Both the position numbers and the translations under genes were made by a program. Below the pieces are notes generated by a model. It did no database searches. It was given only the letters and a program-made list of their open reading frames with translations, and had not been told where the DNA came from. From Escherichia coli (lineage in GTDB: Bacteria > Pseudomonadota > Gammaproteobacteria > Enterobacterales > Enterobacteriaceae), in NCBI RefSeq assembly GCF_003334255.1, contig NZ_QOWU01000052.1: a DNA stretch of 41,323 nucleotides. One strand, written 5' to 3'. Position 1 is the first letter of the stretch. The number at the start of each line of letters is the position of its first letter. Below, piece after piece: positions 24,591 through 34,014 of the stretch.

Positions 24591-25010
24591 TTATCTCTCA
24601 AGTTCGTTCAGTGCATTTTTGACACGCTCTCTTAAACCGGCTTTCTCTTCGCTTTCTTCCACAGTATTTTCTTCGTCTTCAGAAGAAGAGGGGGCATTCT
24701 CAACCGCGACGCCTGGGTCATCTTCCTCCTCGACGGATTCGACGACGGGGAGTGGCTGTTTTTTGAAGAAATAGTGTTGTGTTGATTGTTTAAAAGCGGG
24801 CGTTTCAGCCTCTACAGTGACTTCGGCTTTTACTATCCAAAGCACCCATAGCTGCCTGGCATACCCACCAACCAGCACCATTCCTGCAAACCACAGGCAA
24901 ATCAGTAATAAACAAATTACATATATTATGGTGCTGTGTTTTTGTCGGGAGAAGATACCAGGGTGACCTGTTTCTTTCTGCTCACGCGCGGCGATATAGA
25001 ATTCAAACAT
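24591..25010 (-). CDS. gspB: GspB, T2SS accessory protein (139 aa) with a single TM segment and acidic C-terminal region
   Basis: Translation MFEFYIAAREQKETGHPGIFSRQKHSTIIYVICLLLICLWFAGMVLVGG...; directly downstream of gspA. Confidence 0.85.
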   Translation of the reverse strand: MFEFYIAAREQKETGHPGIFSRQKHSTIIYVICLLLICLWFAGMVLVGGYARQLWVLWIVKAEVTVEAETPAFKQSTQHYFFKKQPLPVVESVEEEDDPGVAVENAPSSSEDEENTVEESEEKAGLRERVKNALNELER

Positions 25011-25011
25011 G

Positions 25012-26481
25012 TCATTTCCCCTTCACTGTTGTTTCCGGGGAAATATTTGCTTCATCCCGATATAAGTAGGCACTCTCCCCTGCCACCTGCCAGAGATGTA
25101 CTAACGTTGAAAAGCCAACAACACCGTCAGTTTTCAAGTGGTGGCTTTTTTGAAATTGCTTTATTTTTTCTACCAACAAGGGACGCCACTCCGCCGAAGG
25201 TTCTGTCGAAATATGCAATGCGCGGTTTAACATCGTTTCCAGCCAGAGAATCTCTTCCTCGCTGCTATCACGCGTAATGGTACTCTCCCCTTCCGGCGAC
25301 ATTTTCCACAACAGAAGATAATCACCCGTCCATACCGACTCAAACCATTTATGTGTCAGCGTCCACGTTTGCTGACCTACGAGGACATCAACGCTAGCCT
25401 CACCGACGCGAACGACCACAACAGGCAATTTTTTGTCCCCGACTTTAAGCGATGCGATCCAGGGCAAATTCTGATCTACCAATGTTTGTAAAGAAGCATT
25501 CCCACTTTTACATGCCAGCCCCGCTCTTACTGCCTGATCGCACCAGGCCGAATCAGCTGGGACCTCGTACCCCCATACGCCGTATAACACGCTTAGCGCC
25601 TCACTATCGCGCATCACCACATGAGCAATATCCTTAGTCATATCTTGTTTAACTACTGGCGTTACGGGTATCAGCCACGCAGGAACGGGTAACGTAGCTG
25701 TAAAAGAGGACAGCAGTAGCCAACCACAGGTAAGAGCGATAATGGTTCCACTCATCACCACGGCAAGCTGCATTTTCCGGGGGCGGTTATCACCCAATAT
25801 GCGGTAAATCATTCGCCATTGTTTTGCTGTGAAAACGCTGGTCTGCTCGGCTTGCTGTAATAAGCGAATTGTTTCGCCGGCAAGCGCCAGCTTTCTGCGA
25901 TCGCCCCGACATAATAAAGCTATCCGTTTCAGAACTCTGGCGGTTAAAAGGAGATCGGGTTGGTCAATATTCTGACCTTCAAGGATGCTTGCCTTAAGTT
26001 CGTGCTCCGTCAGACGTCCTATCGAGACAAGTTCAATGCCCTGTTTTTTAAAATCACGTTCGACTTTTCGATCGGGTCTGCCGATCAGCAAAAATTGACC
26101 GTCAGGAATAAGAGATATTGCGCGTTGGAGATCATCAAGTATGCGGCGGTGATTCAGGTGAGCATTTTCAATAATAATAAGAGGGCAGCGACTATCAGTT
26201 CGATGAAGCGCATGCAGTAATTGCCCCGCCATCTCATCTCGCGTCCAGGCGCTGTCACGGCAGCCCTGTTCAGCCGCGTTATCGTCGGTAACGATCCATG
26301 CGGCCTTACCTTGCCAGGAAACAACGAGGCTTAAAGTAATCACACGGCGATGTTTATCTTTTTGCAGTTGCTGCGCCAGCCAGGTTTTTCCACTTCCAGC
26401 CTCACCCAACAAATAGCATAGACGCCAGGTTTGACGTTTCTCACACAACCAGGAAAGAATAACTTCTCTTCTCGTAGACAT
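25012..26481 (-). CDS. gspA: GspA, T2SS-associated AAA+ ATPase-like inner-membrane protein (489 aa)
   Basis: Walker A motif GEAGSGKTW near the N-terminus; a C-terminal region that in this family is a peptidoglycan-binding domain; divergent from gspC. Confidence 0.9.
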   Translation of the reverse strand: MSTRREVILSWLCEKRQTWRLCYLLGEAGSGKTWLAQQLQKDKHRRVITLSLVVSWQGKAAWIVTDDNAAEQGCRDSAWTRDEMAGQLLHALHRTDSRCPLIIIENAHLNHRRILDDLQRAISLIPDGQFLLIGRPDRKVERDFKKQGIELVSIGRLTEHELKASILEGQNIDQPDLLLTARVLKRIALLCRGDRRKLALAGETIRLLQQAEQTSVFTAKQWRMIYRILGDNRPRKMQLAVVMSGTIIALTCGWLLLSSFTATLPVPAWLIPVTPVVKQDMTKDIAHVVMRDSEALSVLYGVWGYEVPADSAWCDQAVRAGLACKSGNASLQTLVDQNLPWIASLKVGDKKLPVVVVRVGEASVDVLVGQQTWTLTHKWFESVWTGDYLLLWKMSPEGESTITRDSSEEEILWLETMLNRALHISTEPSAEWRPLLVEKIKQFQKSHHLKTDGVVGFSTLVHLWQVAGESAYLYRDEANISPETTVKGK

Positions 26482-26660
26482 AGAACTTCCTGTTTTAATT
26501 ATTGATTATCCTTAATCATAAAAATAATGTATGTATTTATTAATTAAATACATATTACTAATATGAATAAATTTTGCTTGATTCATGCAAGCGGCATTAA
26601 TACTATTTATACTAACGTCAATATACAACCCACCCAATCTATTTTATTAGAACATACATC
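26482..26660. promoter_or_regulatory. Extremely AT-rich divergent control region between gspA and gspC (probable H-NS-silenced promoters)
   Basis: 179 bp dominated by A/T runs (taattattgattatccttaatcataaaaataatgtatgtatttattaattaaatacatattactaatatgaataaatttt); H-NS silencing of the gsp locus is established knowledge. Confidence 0.6.
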
Positions 26661-27476
26661 GTGCCCACACTACGTTTCCCCTTCCATCTGGCGAATCATA
26701 ATAAAGATGCTGCCATCAATATATTGATTATATTTATAAGCATAGGGTCGATTATTTTTAATGTGAATTATTTCCATACAACTATAGTTAAAAATGGACA
26801 GATCATTAATCAACCAACAAACGCATTTCAGTCTGATTTCAGCCTTGCCGCTTTATGGCGTAACGAAAATCATGCTGGGGTAAAAGATGCAAATCCCGTG
26901 GCAGTTAATCAGGAAACACCTAAGCTCTCTATAGCGCTTAATGGCATTGTACTCACATCGAATGATGAGACTTCTTTTGTCTTAATTAATGAGGGGAGCG
27001 AACAAAAGCGATACTCCCTCAACGAAGCCCTTGAGTCAGCGCCGGGAACGTTTATTAGAAAAATAAATAAAACCAGCGTTGTGTTTGAAACTCACGGGCA
27101 TTACGAAAAAGTAACTCTCCATCCAGGGCTACCTGACATCATCAAGCAGCCTGATTCAGAAAGTCAAAATGTACTCGCTGATTATATTATCGCCACGCCT
27201 ATACGTGATGGAGAACAGATATACGGGCTTCGATTGAACCCTCGTAAGGGCCTCAATGCATTTACCACCAGCTTGCTACAACCAGGGGATATCGCCCTCA
27301 GGATCAATAATCTTTCGCTGACCCACCCTGATGAGGTTTCACAGGCATTAAGTTTACTGCTAACTCAACAAAGTGCTCAGTTTACAATTCGTCGCAACGG
27401 CGTACCCCGCTTGATAAATGTTTCCGTCGGGGAACTTACAGGAATGAATGGACTGCGTCATGAAAGGACTCAATAA
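26661..27476 (+). CDS. gspC: T2SS inner-membrane protein GspC (271 aa, GTG start)
   Basis: [41 protein letters not shown]... with one N-terminal TM segment, first gene of the gspC-O operon; the exact start is uncertain. Confidence 0.8.
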
Positions 27477-29412
27477 AATCACCTGCTGCTTGCTGGCAGC
27501 ACTACTCATGCCTTGTGCAGGACACGCTGAGAACGAACAATACGGCGCGAACTTCAATAACGCCGATATCCGCCAGTTCGTGGAAATAGTGGGTCAGCAT
27601 CTTGGCAAAACGATCCTGATCGACCCTTCGGTACAGGGAACCATTTCCGTACGCAGTAATGATACGTTTAGCCAACAGGAGTACTACCAGTTCTTTTTAA
27701 GTATTCTTGATCTTTACGGTTATTCCGTGATCACGCTGGACAATGGTTTTCTGAAAGTGGTTCGCTCAGCTAATGTAAAAACATCGCCAGGGATGATTGC
27801 TGACAGTTCTCGTCCAGGCGTAGGTGATGAGTTGGTCACCCGAATTGTACCGCTTGAGAACGTTCCTGCTCGTGACCTGGCCCCCCTGCTCCGCCAGATG
27901 ATGGATGCGGGTAGCGTCGGTAATGTTGTGCATTATGAACCCTCCAACGTTCTTATTCTGACCGGTCGTGCCTCCACCATTAATAAACTGATTGAAGTCA
28001 TAAAGCGCGTTGATGTCATCGGCACAGAGAAGCAGCAAATTATTCATCTGGAATATGCGTCAGCGGAAGATCTCGCCGAGATTCTTAATCAATTAATCAG
28101 CGAAAGCCACGGTAAAAGCCAGATGCCAGCCCTCCTCTCCGCGAAGATTGTGGCGGATAAGCGAACCAACTCTCTTATCATCAGTGGACCGGAAAAAGCA
28201 CGCCAGCGCATCACTTCATTACTGAAAAGCCTTGATGTCGAAGAGAGCGAGGAAGGAAATACCCGGGTTTATTACCTGAAATATGCTAAAGCCACGAATC
28301 TGGTGGAAGTGCTAACCGGTGTTTCCGAAAAGCTGAAAGATGAAAAAGGGAATGCGCGTAAGCCCTCCTCTTCTGGCGCGATGGATAACGTCGCCATTAC
28401 CGCCGATGAACAGACTAACTCTCTGGTCATTACCGCTGACCAGTCCGTCCAGGAAAAACTCGCCACGGTAATTGCGCGTCTGGACATTCGCCGTGCACAG
28501 GTGCTGGTTGAGGCAATCATCGTTGAAGTTCAGGATGGAAATGGACTAAACCTCGGCGTGCAATGGGCGAATAAAAACGTTGGCGCACAGCAATTTACCA
28601 ATACCGGATTACCGATTTTTAACGCTGCGCAAGGTGTGGCTGATTATAAAAAGAATGGTGGGATCACCAGCGCGAATCCTGCCTGGGATATGTTTAGCGC
28701 CTACAATGGCATGGCCGCAGGCTTCTTCAATGGCGACTGGGGAGTACTGCTTACCGCGCTGGCCAGTAACAATAAAAATGACATCCTCGCCACCCCAAGC
28801 ATCGTAACGCTGGATAATAAACTCGCGTCCTTCAACGTGGGGCAGGATGTGCCGGTGCTATCCGGGTCACAGACCACTTCAGGGGATAACGTCTTTAATA
28901 CCGTCGAACGCAAAACGGTGGGGACAAAACTCAAAGTTACTCCGCAGGTCAATGAAGGCGACGCGGTGTTGCTCGAAATAGAGCAGGAAGTCTCCAGCGT
29001 TGACTCTTCCTCTAACTCGACGCTCGGCCCGACGTTTAATACCCGTACTATTCAAAACGCCGTGCTGGTCAAAACCGGTGAAACGGTGGTCCTGGGCGGA
29101 TTGCTGGATGATTTTTCTAAAGAGCAAGTGTCAAAGGTTCCTCTGCTTGGCGATATTCCTTTAGTGGGGCAACTCTTCCGCTATACCTCCACCGAGCGCG
29201 CTAAACGCAACCTGATGGTATTTATCCGTCCGACGATTATCCGTGACGATGATGTTTATCGCTCACTGTCAAAAGAGAAATACACCCGTTACCGTCAGGA
29301 GCAACAACAGCGGATCGACGGGAAATCAAAAGCGCTGGTTGGCTCGGAAGATTTGCCGGTGCTGGATGAAAACACGTTCAACAGTCACGCCCCTGCGCCA
29401 TCGTCACGGTGA
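27460..29412 (+). CDS. gspD: T2SS secretin GspD (650 aa)
   Basis: Signal peptide [24 protein letters not shown]-domains and C-terminal secretin core ([35 protein letters not shown]); start at 27460 inside ORF 27448..29412, overlapping the gspC end by 17 bp. Confidence 0.93.
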
Positions 29413-29421
29413 GGCATTCAT

Positions 29422-30903
29422 ATGAGAATTCACTCACCGTACCCCGCCAGTTGGGCGCTGGCACAACGAATTGGTTATCTCTATTCAGAGGGCGAGATTA
29501 TTTATCTCGCCGATACGCCATTCGAGCGGTTACTCGATATTCAACGTCAGGTTGGCCAGTGCCAGACCATGACCAGCTTGTCACAGGCTGATTTTGAAGC
29601 TCGGCTGGAAGCGGTATTCCATCAGAATACCGGTGAGTCGCAACAGATTGCGCAGGATATCGATCAATCCGTCGATCTTCTCTCGCTTTCGGAAGAGATG
29701 CCCGCAAATGAAGATCTCCTGAATGAAGATTCAGCGGCACCGGTTATCCGCTTGATCAATGCGATTTTGAGTGAGGCCATCAAAGAAACCGCCTCTGATA
29801 TCCACATTGAAACCTATGAAAAAACAATGTCGATCCGTTTTCGCATCGACGGCGTTTTGCGGACAATTTTACAGCCAAACAAAAAACTGGCGGCACTGCT
29901 TATCTCCCGAATTAAGGTCATGGCTCGTCTTGATATCGCCGAAAAACGTATTCCACAGGATGGAAGAATTAGTTTGCGTATCGGGCGACGTAACATAGAT
30001 GTCCGCGTATCCACACTGCCGTCCATCTATGGTGAACGCGCCGTACTCCGCCTGCTGGATAAAAACAGCCTCCAGCTTTCATTGAACAACCTGGGGATGA
30101 CGGCAGCGGATAAGCAGGATTTAGAAAATCTCATTCAGCTTCCGCACGGTATTATCCTGGTGACAGGGCCGACAGGCTCCGGTAAAAGCACCACGCTCTA
30201 CGCCATCCTTTCGGCGCTGAATACTCCCGGCCGCAATATTCTGACGGTAGAAGATCCCGTGGAATATGAGCTGGAAGGCATTGGGCAAACGCAGGTGAAT
30301 ACCCGTGTGGATATGTCTTTCGCTCGCGGCCTGCGCGCCATACTTCGCCAGGACCCGGATGTCGTCATGGTGGGGGAAATTCGTGATACAGAAACCGCGC
30401 AGATTGCGGTTCAGGCCTCGCTCACCGGCCATCTGGTACTCTCAACACTCCACACTAACAGTGCATCAGGCGCAGTGACCCGGCTCCGCGACATGGGCGT
30501 CGAATCATTCCTGCTTTCGTCTTCCCTGGCAGGGATTATCGCGCAACGTCTGGTTCGTCGCCTGTGTCCGCAATGCCGACAATTCACGCCCGTATCACCC
30601 CAACAAGCGCAGATGTTTAAATATCATCAGCTCGCGGTGACAACAATTGGCACTCCCGTAGGCTGCCCTCATTGCCATCAATCCGGCTATCAGGGGCGCA
30701 TGGCGATCCACGAAATGATGGTGGTGACGCCGGAATTACGGGCCGCTATTCATGAAAATGTGGATGAACAAGCACTGGAGCGACTAGTCCGGCAACAACA
30801 CAAGGCCTTAATCAAAAATGGCCTGCAAAAAGTGATAAGCGGTGACACCTCCTGGGATGAGGTTATGCGCGTCGCCAGTGCCACGCTGGAGAGCGAAGCA
30901 TGA
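29422..30903 (+). CDS. gspE: T2SS assembly ATPase GspE (493 aa)
   Basis: Walker [10 protein letters not shown], Walker B/His box region, and C-terminal tetracysteine zinc motif (CPQC...CPHC). Confidence 0.97.
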
Positions 30904-32096
30904 ATTATCGCTATCGCGCCATGACCCAGGATGGTCAAAAATTGCAAGGGATCATTGATGCTAACGATGAACGTCAGGCACGACTGCGGCTGCGTGAAGA
31001 AGGGCTTTTCCTGCTGGATATTCGCCCCCAAAAAAGTTCGGGAGTAAAAACACGTCGCCCGAGGATCAGCCATAGTGAACTGACGCTTTTCACCCGGCAG
31101 TTGGCAACCTTAAGCGCAGCGGCATTACCCCTGGAAGAGAGCCTTGCCGTAATCGGTCAACAAAGCAGTAATAAACGACTGGGTGACGTGTTAAATCAGG
31201 TACGCAGCGCCATCCTTGAAGGGCATCCCCTTTCCGATGCATTACAGCATTTTCCCACGCTTTTCGATTCGCTCTATCGTACCCTGGTAAAAGCGGGCGA
31301 AAAGAGCGGGCTGCTGGCCCCGGTGTTGGAAAAGCTGGCTGATTACAATGAAAACCGGCAGAAAATCCGCAGCAAGCTCATTCAGTCACTGATCTACCCC
31401 TGTATGCTCACTACGGTGGCGATTGGGGTCGTGATTATTCTCCTCACTGCTGTCGTGCCCAAAATTACCGAACAGTTCGTGCATATGAAGCAGCAACTGC
31501 CGCTGAGTACACGCATTCTTTTAGGTCTGAGCGACACGTTGCAACGTACCGGCCCGACATTATTAGCGACAGTGTTTATTGTCGCTGTAGGTTTCTGGCT
31601 CTGGTTAAAACGCGGCAATAACCGCCACCGTTTTCATGCCATGTTGCTGCGCGTTGCGCTCATCGGCCCGCTGATTTGCGCCATTAACAGCGCACGCTAT
31701 CTCCGCACTTTAAGTATTTTGCAATCCAGCGGCGTCCCTCTGCTGGATGGGATGAATTTGTCCACCGAAAGCCTCAACAACCTCGAAATTCGCCAGCGTC
31801 TGGCAAATGCGGCAGAGAACGTTCGCCAGGGTAACAGCATTCATCTTTCGCTGGAACAAACCGCAATTTTCCCGCCGATGATGCTCTACATGGTGGCCTC
31901 TGGCGAAAAAAGCGGGCAGCTCGGCACATTAATGGTCAGAGCCGCAGATAACCAGGAGACACTCCAACAAAATCGGATCGCCTTAACGCTCTCCATCTTC
32001 GAGCCAGCACTCATTATTACGATGGCACTGATCGTCCTGTTTATTGTCGTGTCGGTACTCCAACCTCTTCTTCAACTTAACTCAATGATTAATTAA
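30900..32096 (+). CDS. gspF: T2SS inner-membrane platform protein GspF (398 aa)
   Basis: Translation [41 protein letters not shown]...; ATGA start/stop overlap with gspE. Confidence 0.96.
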
Positions 32097-32105
32097 GGAA
32101 AGCAT

Positions 32106-32543
32106 ATGCGCGCAACGGATAAGCAACGCGGTTTTACATTACTGGAAATTATGGTGGTGATCGTCATTATCGGCGTACTTGCCAGCCTGGTGGTTCCTAA
32201 CCTAATGGGCAATAAAGAAAAGGCGGATAAGCAAAAAGCCGTCAGCGATATTGTGGCGCTGGAAAACGCCCTTGATATGTACAAACTCGACAATCATCAC
32301 TATCCAACCACAAATCAGGGGCTTGAATCCTTAGTAGAAGCGCCGACACTGCCACCGCTGGCCGCAAACTATAACAAGGAAGGTTATATCAAGCGTCTGC
32401 CTGCCGATCCCTGGGGCAATGATTATGTCCTCGTTAATCCTGGTGAACATGGTGCATACGATCTGCTTTCAGCAGGGCCCGATGGTGAAATGGGAACCGA
32501 GGACGACATCACCAACTGGGGTTTGAGCAAGAAGAAAAAGTAA
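32106..32543 (+). CDS. gspG: T2SS major pseudopilin GspG (145 aa)
   Basis: Prepilin leader and cleavage motif ([20 protein letters not shown]). Confidence 0.97.
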   Translation: MRATDKQRGFTLLEIMVVIVIIGVLASLVVPNLMGNKEKADKQKAVSDIVALENALDMYKLDNHHYPTTNQGLESLVEAPTLPPLAANYNKEGYIKRLPADPWGNDYVLVNPGEHGAYDLLSAGPDGEMGTEDDITNWGLSKKKK

Positions 32544-32550
32544 GTCAGCG

Positions 32551-33060
32551 ATGAATCAGCAACGCGGGTTTACCCTGCTGGAGATGATGCTGGTGCTGGC
32601 GCTGGTCGCTATCACGGCAAGCGTGGTGCTCTTCACATATGGCCGGGAGGATGTCGCCAGCACTCGTGCGCGCGAAACAGCGGCGCGGTTTACCGCTGCA
32701 CTTGAATTAGCCATCGACCGCGCCACGCTCAGTGGTCAGCCTGTCGGTATCCATTTCTCTGATTCAGCATGGCGCATTATGGTACCGGGCAAAACACCAT
32801 CAGCCTGGCGCTGGGTTCCATTACAAGAAGATGCCGCAGACGAGAGCCAAAATGACTGGGATGAAGAACTCTCAATTCATCTTCAGCCATTTAAACCTGA
32901 TGACAGCAACCAGCCACAGGTTGTGATTCTGGCCGACGGACAAATCACGCCCTTCTCTTTGTTGATGGCTAACGCCGGGACCGGTGAGCCGCTCCTGACG
33001 TTAGTCTGTTCAGGCTCATGGCCCCTGGATCAAACGCTCGCCAGAGATACCCGCCCATGA
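32551..33060 (+). CDS. gspH: T2SS minor pseudopilin GspH (169 aa)
   Basis: Prepilin-type N-terminus [21 protein letters not shown]. Confidence 0.93.
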
Positions 33061-33434
33061 ACAAACAATCAGGGATGACACTGCTTGAAGTCTTACTGGC
33101 GATGAGTATTTTCACCGCTGTTGCTCTGACTTTAATGAGCAGTATGCAAGGGCAACGAAATGCCATCGAGCGAATGCGTAACGAGACGCTGGCATTGTGG
33201 ATAGCGGATAACCAGCTTCAGTCACAAGATTCATTCGGCGAGGAAAACACGTCCAGTTCTGGCAAAGAGTTAATAAATGGCGAAGAGTGGAACTGGCGCA
33301 GCGATATCCACTCAAGCAAAGACGGCACGCTTCTGGAACGCACCATAACGGTGACATTACCCAGCGGTCAGACAACCTCGCTTACGCGTTATCAAAGCAT
33401 CGATAATAAATCCGGGCAGGCACAAGATGATTAA
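33057..33434 (+). CDS. gspI: T2SS minor pseudopilin GspI (125 aa)
   Basis: Prepilin-type N-terminus [19 protein letters not shown]; start at the internal ATG of ORF 33018..33434, overlapping the gspH stop by 4 bp. Confidence 0.9.
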
Positions 33435-34014
33435 TCGCCAGCAGGGTTTCACATTGCTGGAGGTCATGGCGGCGCTGGCGATTTTCTCAATGCTTAGCGT
33501 GCTGGCGTTTATGATTTTTTCGCAAGCTTCCGAGTTGCATCAACGCTCACAGAAAGAAATCCAGCAGTTCAATCAGCTACAGCGCACCATCACCATTCTT
33601 GATAACGATCTCCTGCAACTGGTCGCCCGGAGGAATCGGAGTACGGACAAAATCATGGTGTTGGGTGAAGAAGCTATTTTTACCACGCAAAGTCGCGATC
33701 CGCTGGCTCCTCTCAGTGAAGCACAAACCTTACTCACTGTTCACTGGTATCTGCGAAATCATACGCTCTACCGTGCTGTTCGTACTTCTGTGGATGGCAG
33801 GAAGGATCAACCCGCCCAGGCGATGCTGGAACATGTCGAGAGCTTTCTTCTGGAAAGTAACAGCGGGGAAAGCCAGGAACTTCCTCTCTCAGTCACGTTA
33901 CATCTGCAGACTCAGCAATATGGGGGGTTACAGCGCCGTTTTGCATTACCTGAGCAGTTAGCGAGAGAAGAGTCGCCAGCTCAGACGCAGGCCGGGAATA
34001 ATAACCATGAATAA
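33427..34014 (+). CDS. gspJ: T2SS minor pseudopilin GspJ (195 aa)
   Basis: Prepilin-type N-terminus [20 protein letters not shown]. Confidence 0.93.

Follow-up and report, generated by a model that had tools for sequence, protein, structure and literature searches.

An A/T-rich spacer between the divergent gspAB and gspC-O operons of Escherichia coli as a shared control region silenced by H-NS

The type II secretion machine encoded by Escherichia coli K-12 is complete, yet laboratory cultures export nothing through it, which raises the question of what keeps the system silent. The spacer that separates its two divergent operons explains this behavior, as has been understood since 2000. Confirming that the spacer is silenced adds no new biology, and the same 179-bp fragment has already been used in binding assays; what is new here is the conservation of the spacer, the persistence of its divergent layout, and a palindrome that lies between its predicted promoters.

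The DNA analyzed is a 41,323-nt stretch of E. coli sequence (contig NZ_QOWU01000052.1), referred to below as the window. The region belongs to the E. coli chromosome: when 601 nt around the spacer were used as query, the match to strain G1/2 was 100%, and identity was 95% or more in 3142 of 5426 complete genomes of the species. In the annotation of a 100%-identical E. coli genome the gene order is rplC-rpsJ, gspB-gspA (minus strand), gspC-D-E-F-G-H-I-J-K-L-M-O (plus strand), and bfr-bfd-chiA-tufA, and in the annotation of K-12 MG1655 the gsp products are named as proteins of a “cryptic type II secretion system”. Pfam domains on close homologues of GspA are GspA_C39-like, AAA_22, and PG_binding_1. 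The initial annotation had described a 179-bp gap between the divergent gspA and gspC starts, and its coordinates are exact, with the spacer adjoining the rightmost base of the gspA start codon (complement, 26481) on one side and the gspC GTG at 26661 on the other, in agreement with the RefSeq annotation of the 100%-identical genome. The K-12 gspAB/gspC-O region described by Curran et al. 2017 (PMC5797941) is the same locus, with the same gene order and the same 179-bp length, and the spacer of MG1655 differs from ours at a single base, 26565 (G here, A in K-12). With gspA facing leftward, gspC facing rightward, and a putative promoter, recognizable as a -35/-10 pair, on each strand between them, the locus has the form of a divergon, and the spacer is the shared control region of the gspAB and gspC-O operons of the E. 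coli chromosomal type II secretion system (T2SS-alpha; Table 1). No megablast match to the gspA-spacer-gspC query was obtained in 2284 of the 5426 complete E. coli genomes, and about 42% of them therefore lack the T2SS-alpha control region or carry a version too diverged to be detected.

Table 1. Features of the gspA/gspC control region and its surroundings (positions in the window)
Feature	Position	Strand	Basis and remarks
gspB, 139 aa, second gene of the gspAB operon	24591..25010	-	ORF and annotation
gspA, 489 aa, first gene of the gspAB operon	25012..26481	-	ORF and RefSeq annotation
gspA/gspC intergenic spacer, 179 bp, 23.5% GC	26482..26660	none	H-NS-bound divergent control region; same fragment as primers TC59/TC60 of PMC5797941
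gspA Shine-Dalgarno sequence AGGAAG (strong)	26486..26491	-	read from sequence
Predicted sigma-70 promoter of gspAB, TTAATA-17-TATGAT	26515..26543	-	consensus scan here and Shimada 2014 (PMC3946193)
Perfect palindrome TATGTATTTA-ttaat-TAAATACATA, 10-bp arms, 5-nt center	26530..26554	none	inverted-repeat search; overlaps the gspA -35, between the predicted promoters
Proposed SlyA box, TTATATTAGTAA in K-12, TCATATTAGTAA here	26555..26566	-	Curran et al. (PMC5797941)
Predicted sigma-70 promoter of gspC-O, TTGATT-17-TACTAT	26578..26606	+	prediction of Shimada 2014 (PMC3946193); located here
gspC, 271 aa, GTG start, first gene of the gspC-O operon	26661..27476	+	ORF and annotation; GTG in TCGTG context kept in four lineages
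A/T-rich gspC 5' end, 32% GC	26661..26810	+	encodes an Ile/Asn/Phe-rich N-terminus and membrane segment
gspD to gspO, remainder of the T2SS-alpha operon transcribed from the spacer	27460..37303	+	annotation of the 100%-identical genome
A/T-rich region upstream of chiA (chiA/tufA gap), 29.9% GC overall, 179-nt minimum 22.9%	40937..41227	-	composition

The base composition of the spacer is extreme. Its GC fraction is 0.235, whereas 179-nt windows average 0.495 (SD 0.048), placing it approximately 5.5 SD below the mean; windows this low make up 0.04% of all those in the stretch, and the sole equally low spot lies upstream of chiA, at 40882-41253. These windowed values (23.5% versus 49.5% GC) bear out the earlier description of the spacer as far more A/T-rich than the flanking coding DNA, and its description as a mosaic of short A/T runs and TA steps was accurate as well: the 179 nt contain 29 TA steps and 12 runs of four or more nucleotides made up of A and T only, and both TpA and ApT are enriched (observed/expected 1.11 versus 0.75 in the whole window for TA, and 1.23 versus 0.99 for AT). 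AA and TT, by comparison, are relatively depleted (0.86 and 0.95, versus 1.09 and 1.26 in the window), and homopolymer tracts of at least 4 nt number only four. The low-GC tract exceeds the spacer itself. Sliding 179-nt windows remain below 32% GC from 26382 to 26894. At 40-nt resolution, GC content is as low as 10-15% across 26500-26579 and reaches 20% across 26700-26759, which is already gspC coding sequence; that gene has 32% GC over its initial 150 nt and 44.7% thereafter. This A/T-rich gspC 5' end is likely a downstream extension of the tract that H-NS binds, in line with the 392-bp extent of the “promoter island” listed at this locus (PMC3661553).

Divergent transcription of both gsp operons was reportedly found by Francetic and colleagues in 2000 to be silenced by H-NS. 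Later papers, including PMC5797941, cite Francetic 2000 for the statement that the K-12 secretion system is silent and is de-repressed in hns mutants, which then secrete the chitinase ChiA, and the repression by H-NS is reported in such papers either for gspC-O or for the entire secretion system. Curran et al. 2017 (PMC5797941), citing Francetic et al. 2000 and Francetic & Pugsley 1996, describe gspC-O as a “cryptic”, H-NS-repressed transcription unit, and they tabulate binding of H-NS at gsp in the ChIP-chip data of Kahramanoglou and Oshima. The spacer is also a divergent RpoD-holoenzyme genomic-SELEX site that carries an HNS mark and one predicted promoter per direction (Shimada et al. 2014, PMC3946193), an H-NS-bound “promoter island” of 392 bp (3453428_392, gspA(-)/gspC(+); Panyukov & Ozoline 2013, PMC3661553), and, in an IPOD-HR preprint (10.1101/2020.01.29.924811), the sole prominent non-RNAP occupancy peak of its neighborhood. 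The proposal that this A/T-rich divergent region is bound and silenced by H-NS therefore matches ChIP-chip, IPOD-HR, and hns de-repression results that others have published for the same locus; silencing of the gspA/gspC control region by H-NS has been on record since 2000 and was extended between 2013 and 2021. To this record we add a sequence analysis of the composition, layout, promoter-like elements, and conservation of the region.

A simpler account of the low GC content would be that two UP-element-bearing promoters and two leaders give the spacer the A/T-richness ordinary for a promoter region, with no role for a nucleoid protein. Intergenic promoter regions are generally A/T-richer than genes, and the other gaps in the window have 30-45% GC. 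At 23.5%, however, the spacer has the lowest GC content among the eight listed intergenic gaps of at least 60 nt and falls far below every other gap in the window, including the highly active promoter regions of the ribosomal-protein genes. Moreover, in both K-12 and BL21 these two operons are silent and not active, and the account is already contradicted by the published H-NS ChIP and IPOD-HR occupancy and by the hns data, making it extremely improbable. An H-NS-silenced shared control region is, in our judgment, very probably the best explanation of the locus.

How H-NS would recognize the spacer is a separate matter. All H-NS sites identified by Lang et al. 2007 (PMC2094087) contain a central T-A step, and the spacer combines its excess of TpA steps with an A/T content well above background over at least 100 bp. 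The tCGATAAATT motif of the same authors is matched at 8/10 once within the spacer (26564) and three times in the gspC 5' end (26716, 26718, and 26748), and the number of spacer sites matching at 7/10 or better was not above that expected from composition (5, versus 5.1 +/- 2.2 in shuffled sequences). The initial annotation had called the spacer curved, and a statically bent element built from phased A-tracts, with the bend itself recruiting H-NS, would accord with its high A/T content and with the historical description of H-NS as preferring curved DNA (PMC2094087). Curvature was estimated with a wedge model for dinucleotide steps, based on approximate Bolshoy/Trifonov parameters, such that absolute values are approximate. 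The model detects bends, since the ratio of end-to-end distance to contour length was 0.338 for a phased A6 control, versus 0.979 for A6 tracts placed out of phase. For the spacer the ratio was 0.962, compared with 0.947 +/- 0.035 for the window and a mean of 0.920 for its own shuffles; its bend was no greater than that in 84% of those shuffles or in 59% of all windows, and, ranked against the window, its mean and peak curvature fell at the 65th and 30th percentiles, respectively. A 10-11 bp periodicity of AA/TT was not found in the spacer either: 92% of shuffles matched or exceeded its signal, which fell short of their mean, and TpA and ApT steps, rather than its few homopolymer tracts, dominate the sequence. 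The curvature part of the proposal thus fails, in that a model with a working positive control predicts neither an unusual static bend nor A-tract phasing, and recruitment through curvature, as judged from this modelling, is already disfavored and appears unlikely. The alternating, TpA-rich, and apparently unphased character predicted for the spacer fits the view of H-NS sites that emphasizes sequence and flexibility (Lang et al. 2007, PMC2094087), and the earlier picture may be refined accordingly: the recognition feature would be TpA-rich flexible DNA and not predicted static curvature.

Both promoters had been proposed to lie within the spacer, and the predicted elements fit this arrangement. 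The predicted gspC promoter scores 8/12 against the consensus and was left unlisted by our simple scan, for which the threshold was 9/12; its -35 CTTG and -10 TAyTAT are kept in the allele found in E. ruysiae (described below), in another enterobacterium, and in Superficieibacter. On the gspAB side, 41 of 46 positions around the -10 are identical in the E. ruysiae-type allele, and the gspA Shine-Dalgarno sequence is kept in that allele and reads AGGATG in locus L011. The two predicted -35 hexamers are back to back, 34 bp apart. From their positions we infer start sites near 26508 for gspA and 26613 for gspC, approximately 105 bp apart, which would give leaders of about 27 and 47 nt. This part of the proposal is therefore consistent with conserved -35 and -10 elements for each direction, all of them predicted. 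In a simple consensus scan, promoter-like sites were no denser in the spacer than in shuffled sequences (4 versus 2.8 +/- 2.1). The spacer is a listed member of the “promoter islands” (PMC3661553), yet its promoter-like sites are not denser than in composition-matched shuffles, and by such a scan its “island” property is indistinguishable from a consequence of A/T-richness.

Several other elements were noted in the spacer. A short inverted repeat that contains G+C, GCTTG-attcatg-CAAGC at 26576-26592, overlaps the predicted gspC -35; a T-rich run follows it on the minus strand, and it was flagged as terminator-like. In the E. ruysiae-type allele the repeat is altered in its loop and right arm (GCTTGATTCATTCAACC). 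An Rfam scan of the spacer returned a chance-level match to snR63 only (12.3 bits versus a gathering score of 50, E = 0.91). Two small open reading frames, 26563-26727 (plus strand, 54 aa) and 26512-26637 (minus strand, 41 aa), were judged spurious, and the ATG of the first exists only because of a rare single nucleotide polymorphism (SNP) of this strain at 26565, K-12 having ATA. A Fur box near 26503-26523, considered by eye because bfd and bfr are nearby, matched the consensus at approximately 10 of 19 positions and was rejected.

Taken together, the published data and the layout are compatible with the following sequence of events. Two back-to-back sigma-70 promoters would sit in the spacer, embedded in a TpA-rich tract of approximately 400 bp and 10-30% GC that runs into the first ~150 nt of gspC. 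H-NS would bind this tract and polymerize over both promoters, with RNA polymerase excluded or trapped under laboratory conditions, and both operons would thereby be silent, producing the “cryptic” phenotype. Removal of H-NS would de-repress both operons, and competing A/T-binding regulators such as SlyA may partly counteract silencing, at least for gspC-O. Within this scheme, spreading of the filament into gspC and occlusion of the promoters as the silencing step are what we infer from the extent of the tract and the position of the predicted promoters.

Binding of SlyA to this DNA has been demonstrated by others. The primers of Curran et al., TC59 and TC60, map to 26482-26504 and 26635-26660, respectively, and their amplicon is the same 179 bp analyzed here. 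SlyA binds this fragment in EMSA with an apparent Kd of ~50-100 nM, and a SlyA box was proposed 79 bp upstream of gspA (PMC5797941). By our own count the box matches the consensus TTAGCAAGCTAA at 5 of 12 positions here and at 6 of 12 in K-12. It reads TCATATTAGTAA and not TTATATTAGTAA as a result of an A-to-G SNP at 26565, which falls within the proposed box; A is the base at this position in K-12 and in four further, diverse E. coli strains, and the G allele is rare, the exact 61-mer occurring in 10 of 3123 genomes that carry the region. As for the suggestion that one silencing or anti-silencing event could control the whole machine, overexpression of SlyA raised gspCDEF 2.4-fold, and gspAB is not among the SlyA-regulated operons listed in the same study (PMC5797941). 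A single anti-silencing event that acts in both directions therefore does not follow from these results.

The spacer appears to be under functional constraint. We compared four E. coli strains in which the 601-nt region is 97-98% identical to the window. The spacer differs at 1-2 of 179 positions in these strains (0.6-1.1%), and one of the differences is the window's own rare allele, while flanking gspA differs by 2.3-2.9% in all four and flanking gspC by 2.2-2.6% in three and 0.7% in the fourth. A search with the GspA protein returned E. coli clusters at 97-100% identity, then one cluster at 75%, and then clusters at 41-45%, one of which is Superficieibacter. The members named in the 75% cluster are E. 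ruysiae, unclassified Escherichia, and some isolates labelled E. coli. The spacer of this E. ruysiae-type allele is 180 nt long with 23.9% GC and is 86% identical to that of E. coli, versus DNA identities of 72% for gspB, 78% for gspA, and 75% for gspC; by segment, identity is 92% across the gspC promoter and leader and 74% across the central segment containing the palindrome and SlyA box. The spacer thus seems to be under purifying selection, since it has diverged less than its neighboring genes, whether E. coli strains are compared with one another or with the E. ruysiae-type allele.

The arrangement of the locus is old, judging from the loci with 41-45% GspA identity. These are syntenic, with gspE-D-C leftward, a spacer, and gspA-gspB-rpsJ-rplC rightward, and they keep the TCGTG context of the gspC start, the CTTG of the -35, and the TAyTAT of the -10. 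Their spacers are 179 and 143 nt long, with 30.7% and 38.5% GC, the latter in Superficieibacter, so that the extreme A/T-richness appears to be specific to the Escherichia alleles. Persistence of the divergent layout beside the S10 operon in distant enterobacteria indicates a probable long residence at this site. Constraint on the spacer and an old syntenic layout argue that the “cryptic” system is maintained and regulated and is not a decaying relic.

These comparisons also bear on the idea that the low GC content is itself a relic of horizontal transfer from a foreign low-GC island, to which binding of H-NS would be incidental. Promoter islands, this one included, are associated with predicted foreign genes (PMC3661553), the locus is absent or undetected in the 2284 complete genomes mentioned above, and the E. 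ruysiae-type allele, just 78% identical in DNA, marks an unusually divergent locus. The gsp genes, however, have 42-56% GC, near the window average, such that the low GC content is confined to the spacer and the gspC 5' end; the locus is found at the same position beside rpsJ in Superficieibacter and in one other enterobacterium, with GspA only 41-45% identical, which indicates old residence there; and the spacer is more conserved than the coding DNA around it, as would be expected under purifying selection. An origin of the composition in horizontal transfer is consequently improbable, and silencing by H-NS at a shared, maintained control region remains the preferred reading.

The divergence between the two Escherichia alleles is an observation in its own right. 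In E. ruysiae and cryptic-clade Escherichia (loci L010 and L014-L021), gspB-gspA-gspC DNA is 72-78% identical to that of E. coli, which is far below the usual genome-wide identity between E. coli and these lineages. This difference suggests an old allelic split, or a replacement of the gsp locus, even as the spacer remains 86% identical.

The remaining candidate for a specific control element is the palindrome between the predicted promoters. Perfect arms of 10 bp are unlikely by composition, arms of at least 10 nt occurring in 1.4-2.2% of shuffles (P 0.014-0.022), and the DNA hairpin has a predicted energy of -5.9 kcal/mol (z = -2.55). In the E. ruysiae-type allele, by our own reading of an ungapped alignment, 8 of 10 Watson-Crick pairs are kept, and two positions are changed on both sides (T-A to A-T and T-A to C-G); the equivalent sequence folds as a weaker hairpin (-3.9 kcal/mol, z = -1.73) with the same pairs plus one G-T and two inner pairs. 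The palindrome overlaps the gspA -35 in a stretch between divergent promoters where negative supercoils would be expected to accumulate. One could accordingly envisage that a specific dimeric regulator, or a supercoil-driven cruciform, at 26530-26554 is the real switch and H-NS only the background. The P value of ~0.02 is weak, given that many features were inspected, and the E. ruysiae-type allele provides a single independent comparison: all loci of this type share one allele here, and the spacers of further E. ruysiae and cryptic-clade loci are essentially identical and add no independent comparisons. The central segment is, in addition, the least conserved of the spacer (28 of 38 positions), no comparable inverted repeat was found in the two distant orthologous spacers, one E. 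coli strain has an uncompensated T-to-C change in one arm, and no known regulator motif was matched. We therefore give little credence to the palindrome as the real switch over a mere background of H-NS. That it acts within H-NS silencing, as a dimeric-regulator operator or A/T-rich cruciform that decides when the system escapes, is a decidedly long shot, yet the palindrome is a cheap candidate to test for natural induction of the secretion system.

A second type II secretion cluster of E. coli invites comparison. The T2SS-beta cluster of ETEC and EPEC, yghJ-pppA-yghG-gspC-M, was reportedly found by Yang et al. in 2007 to be repressed by H-NS and StpA, and would thus be a further type II secretion cluster of E. 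coli subject to H-NS-type silencing. It differs in being at another locus (between yghE and yghF, near pitB), in having a paralogous gene set, and in having no divergent gspA partner. BL21 expresses the T2SS-beta cluster while its alpha cluster stays silent. The organization of the gsp spacer also bears similarity to that of proU and bgl (Lang et al. 2007, PMC2094087), in that an A/T-rich, TpA-containing tract with 8/10 motif-like sites covers the promoter and continues past the start codon, here over 26661-26810. Unlike at proU and bgl, two divergent promoters share one tract at gsp, and the high-affinity motif is not enriched beyond composition.

The other A/T-rich spots of the window lie on either side of chiA, itself another H-NS-silenced gene, whose product is the chitinase secreted by this T2SS (PMC5797941). 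The region upstream of chiA, unlike the gsp spacer, has two of the ten strongest curvature peaks predicted for the window near its edge, at 40956 in the gap and at 40802 inside chiA. A third low-GC stretch, at 38001-38259 (bfd/chiA gap, 38075-38242), reaches a 179-nt minimum of 27.9%; the gap separates the chiA 3' end from the bfd start, and it also contains a predicted curvature peak at 38145.

A natural deletion of the control region was found in E. coli TL012 (locus L007, NZ_CP123951.1, 2503-4655), where an IS1A element has taken the place of the entire spacer together with the 5' half of gspA and the first part of gspC; gspA is annotated as a pseudogene in this strain and gspC as shortened. 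When genome contigs were searched with GspA, E. coli-like sequences in unrelated assemblies were limited to two contigs. One (L008, NZ_JAUFQN010000012.1, labelled Flavobacterium paronense) contains the same gsp allele riddled with single-base indels, and the other (L009, labelled Alkalicoccobacillus porphyridii) is a 273-nt contig that carries E. coli gsp sequence; both look like E. coli contamination of public assemblies.
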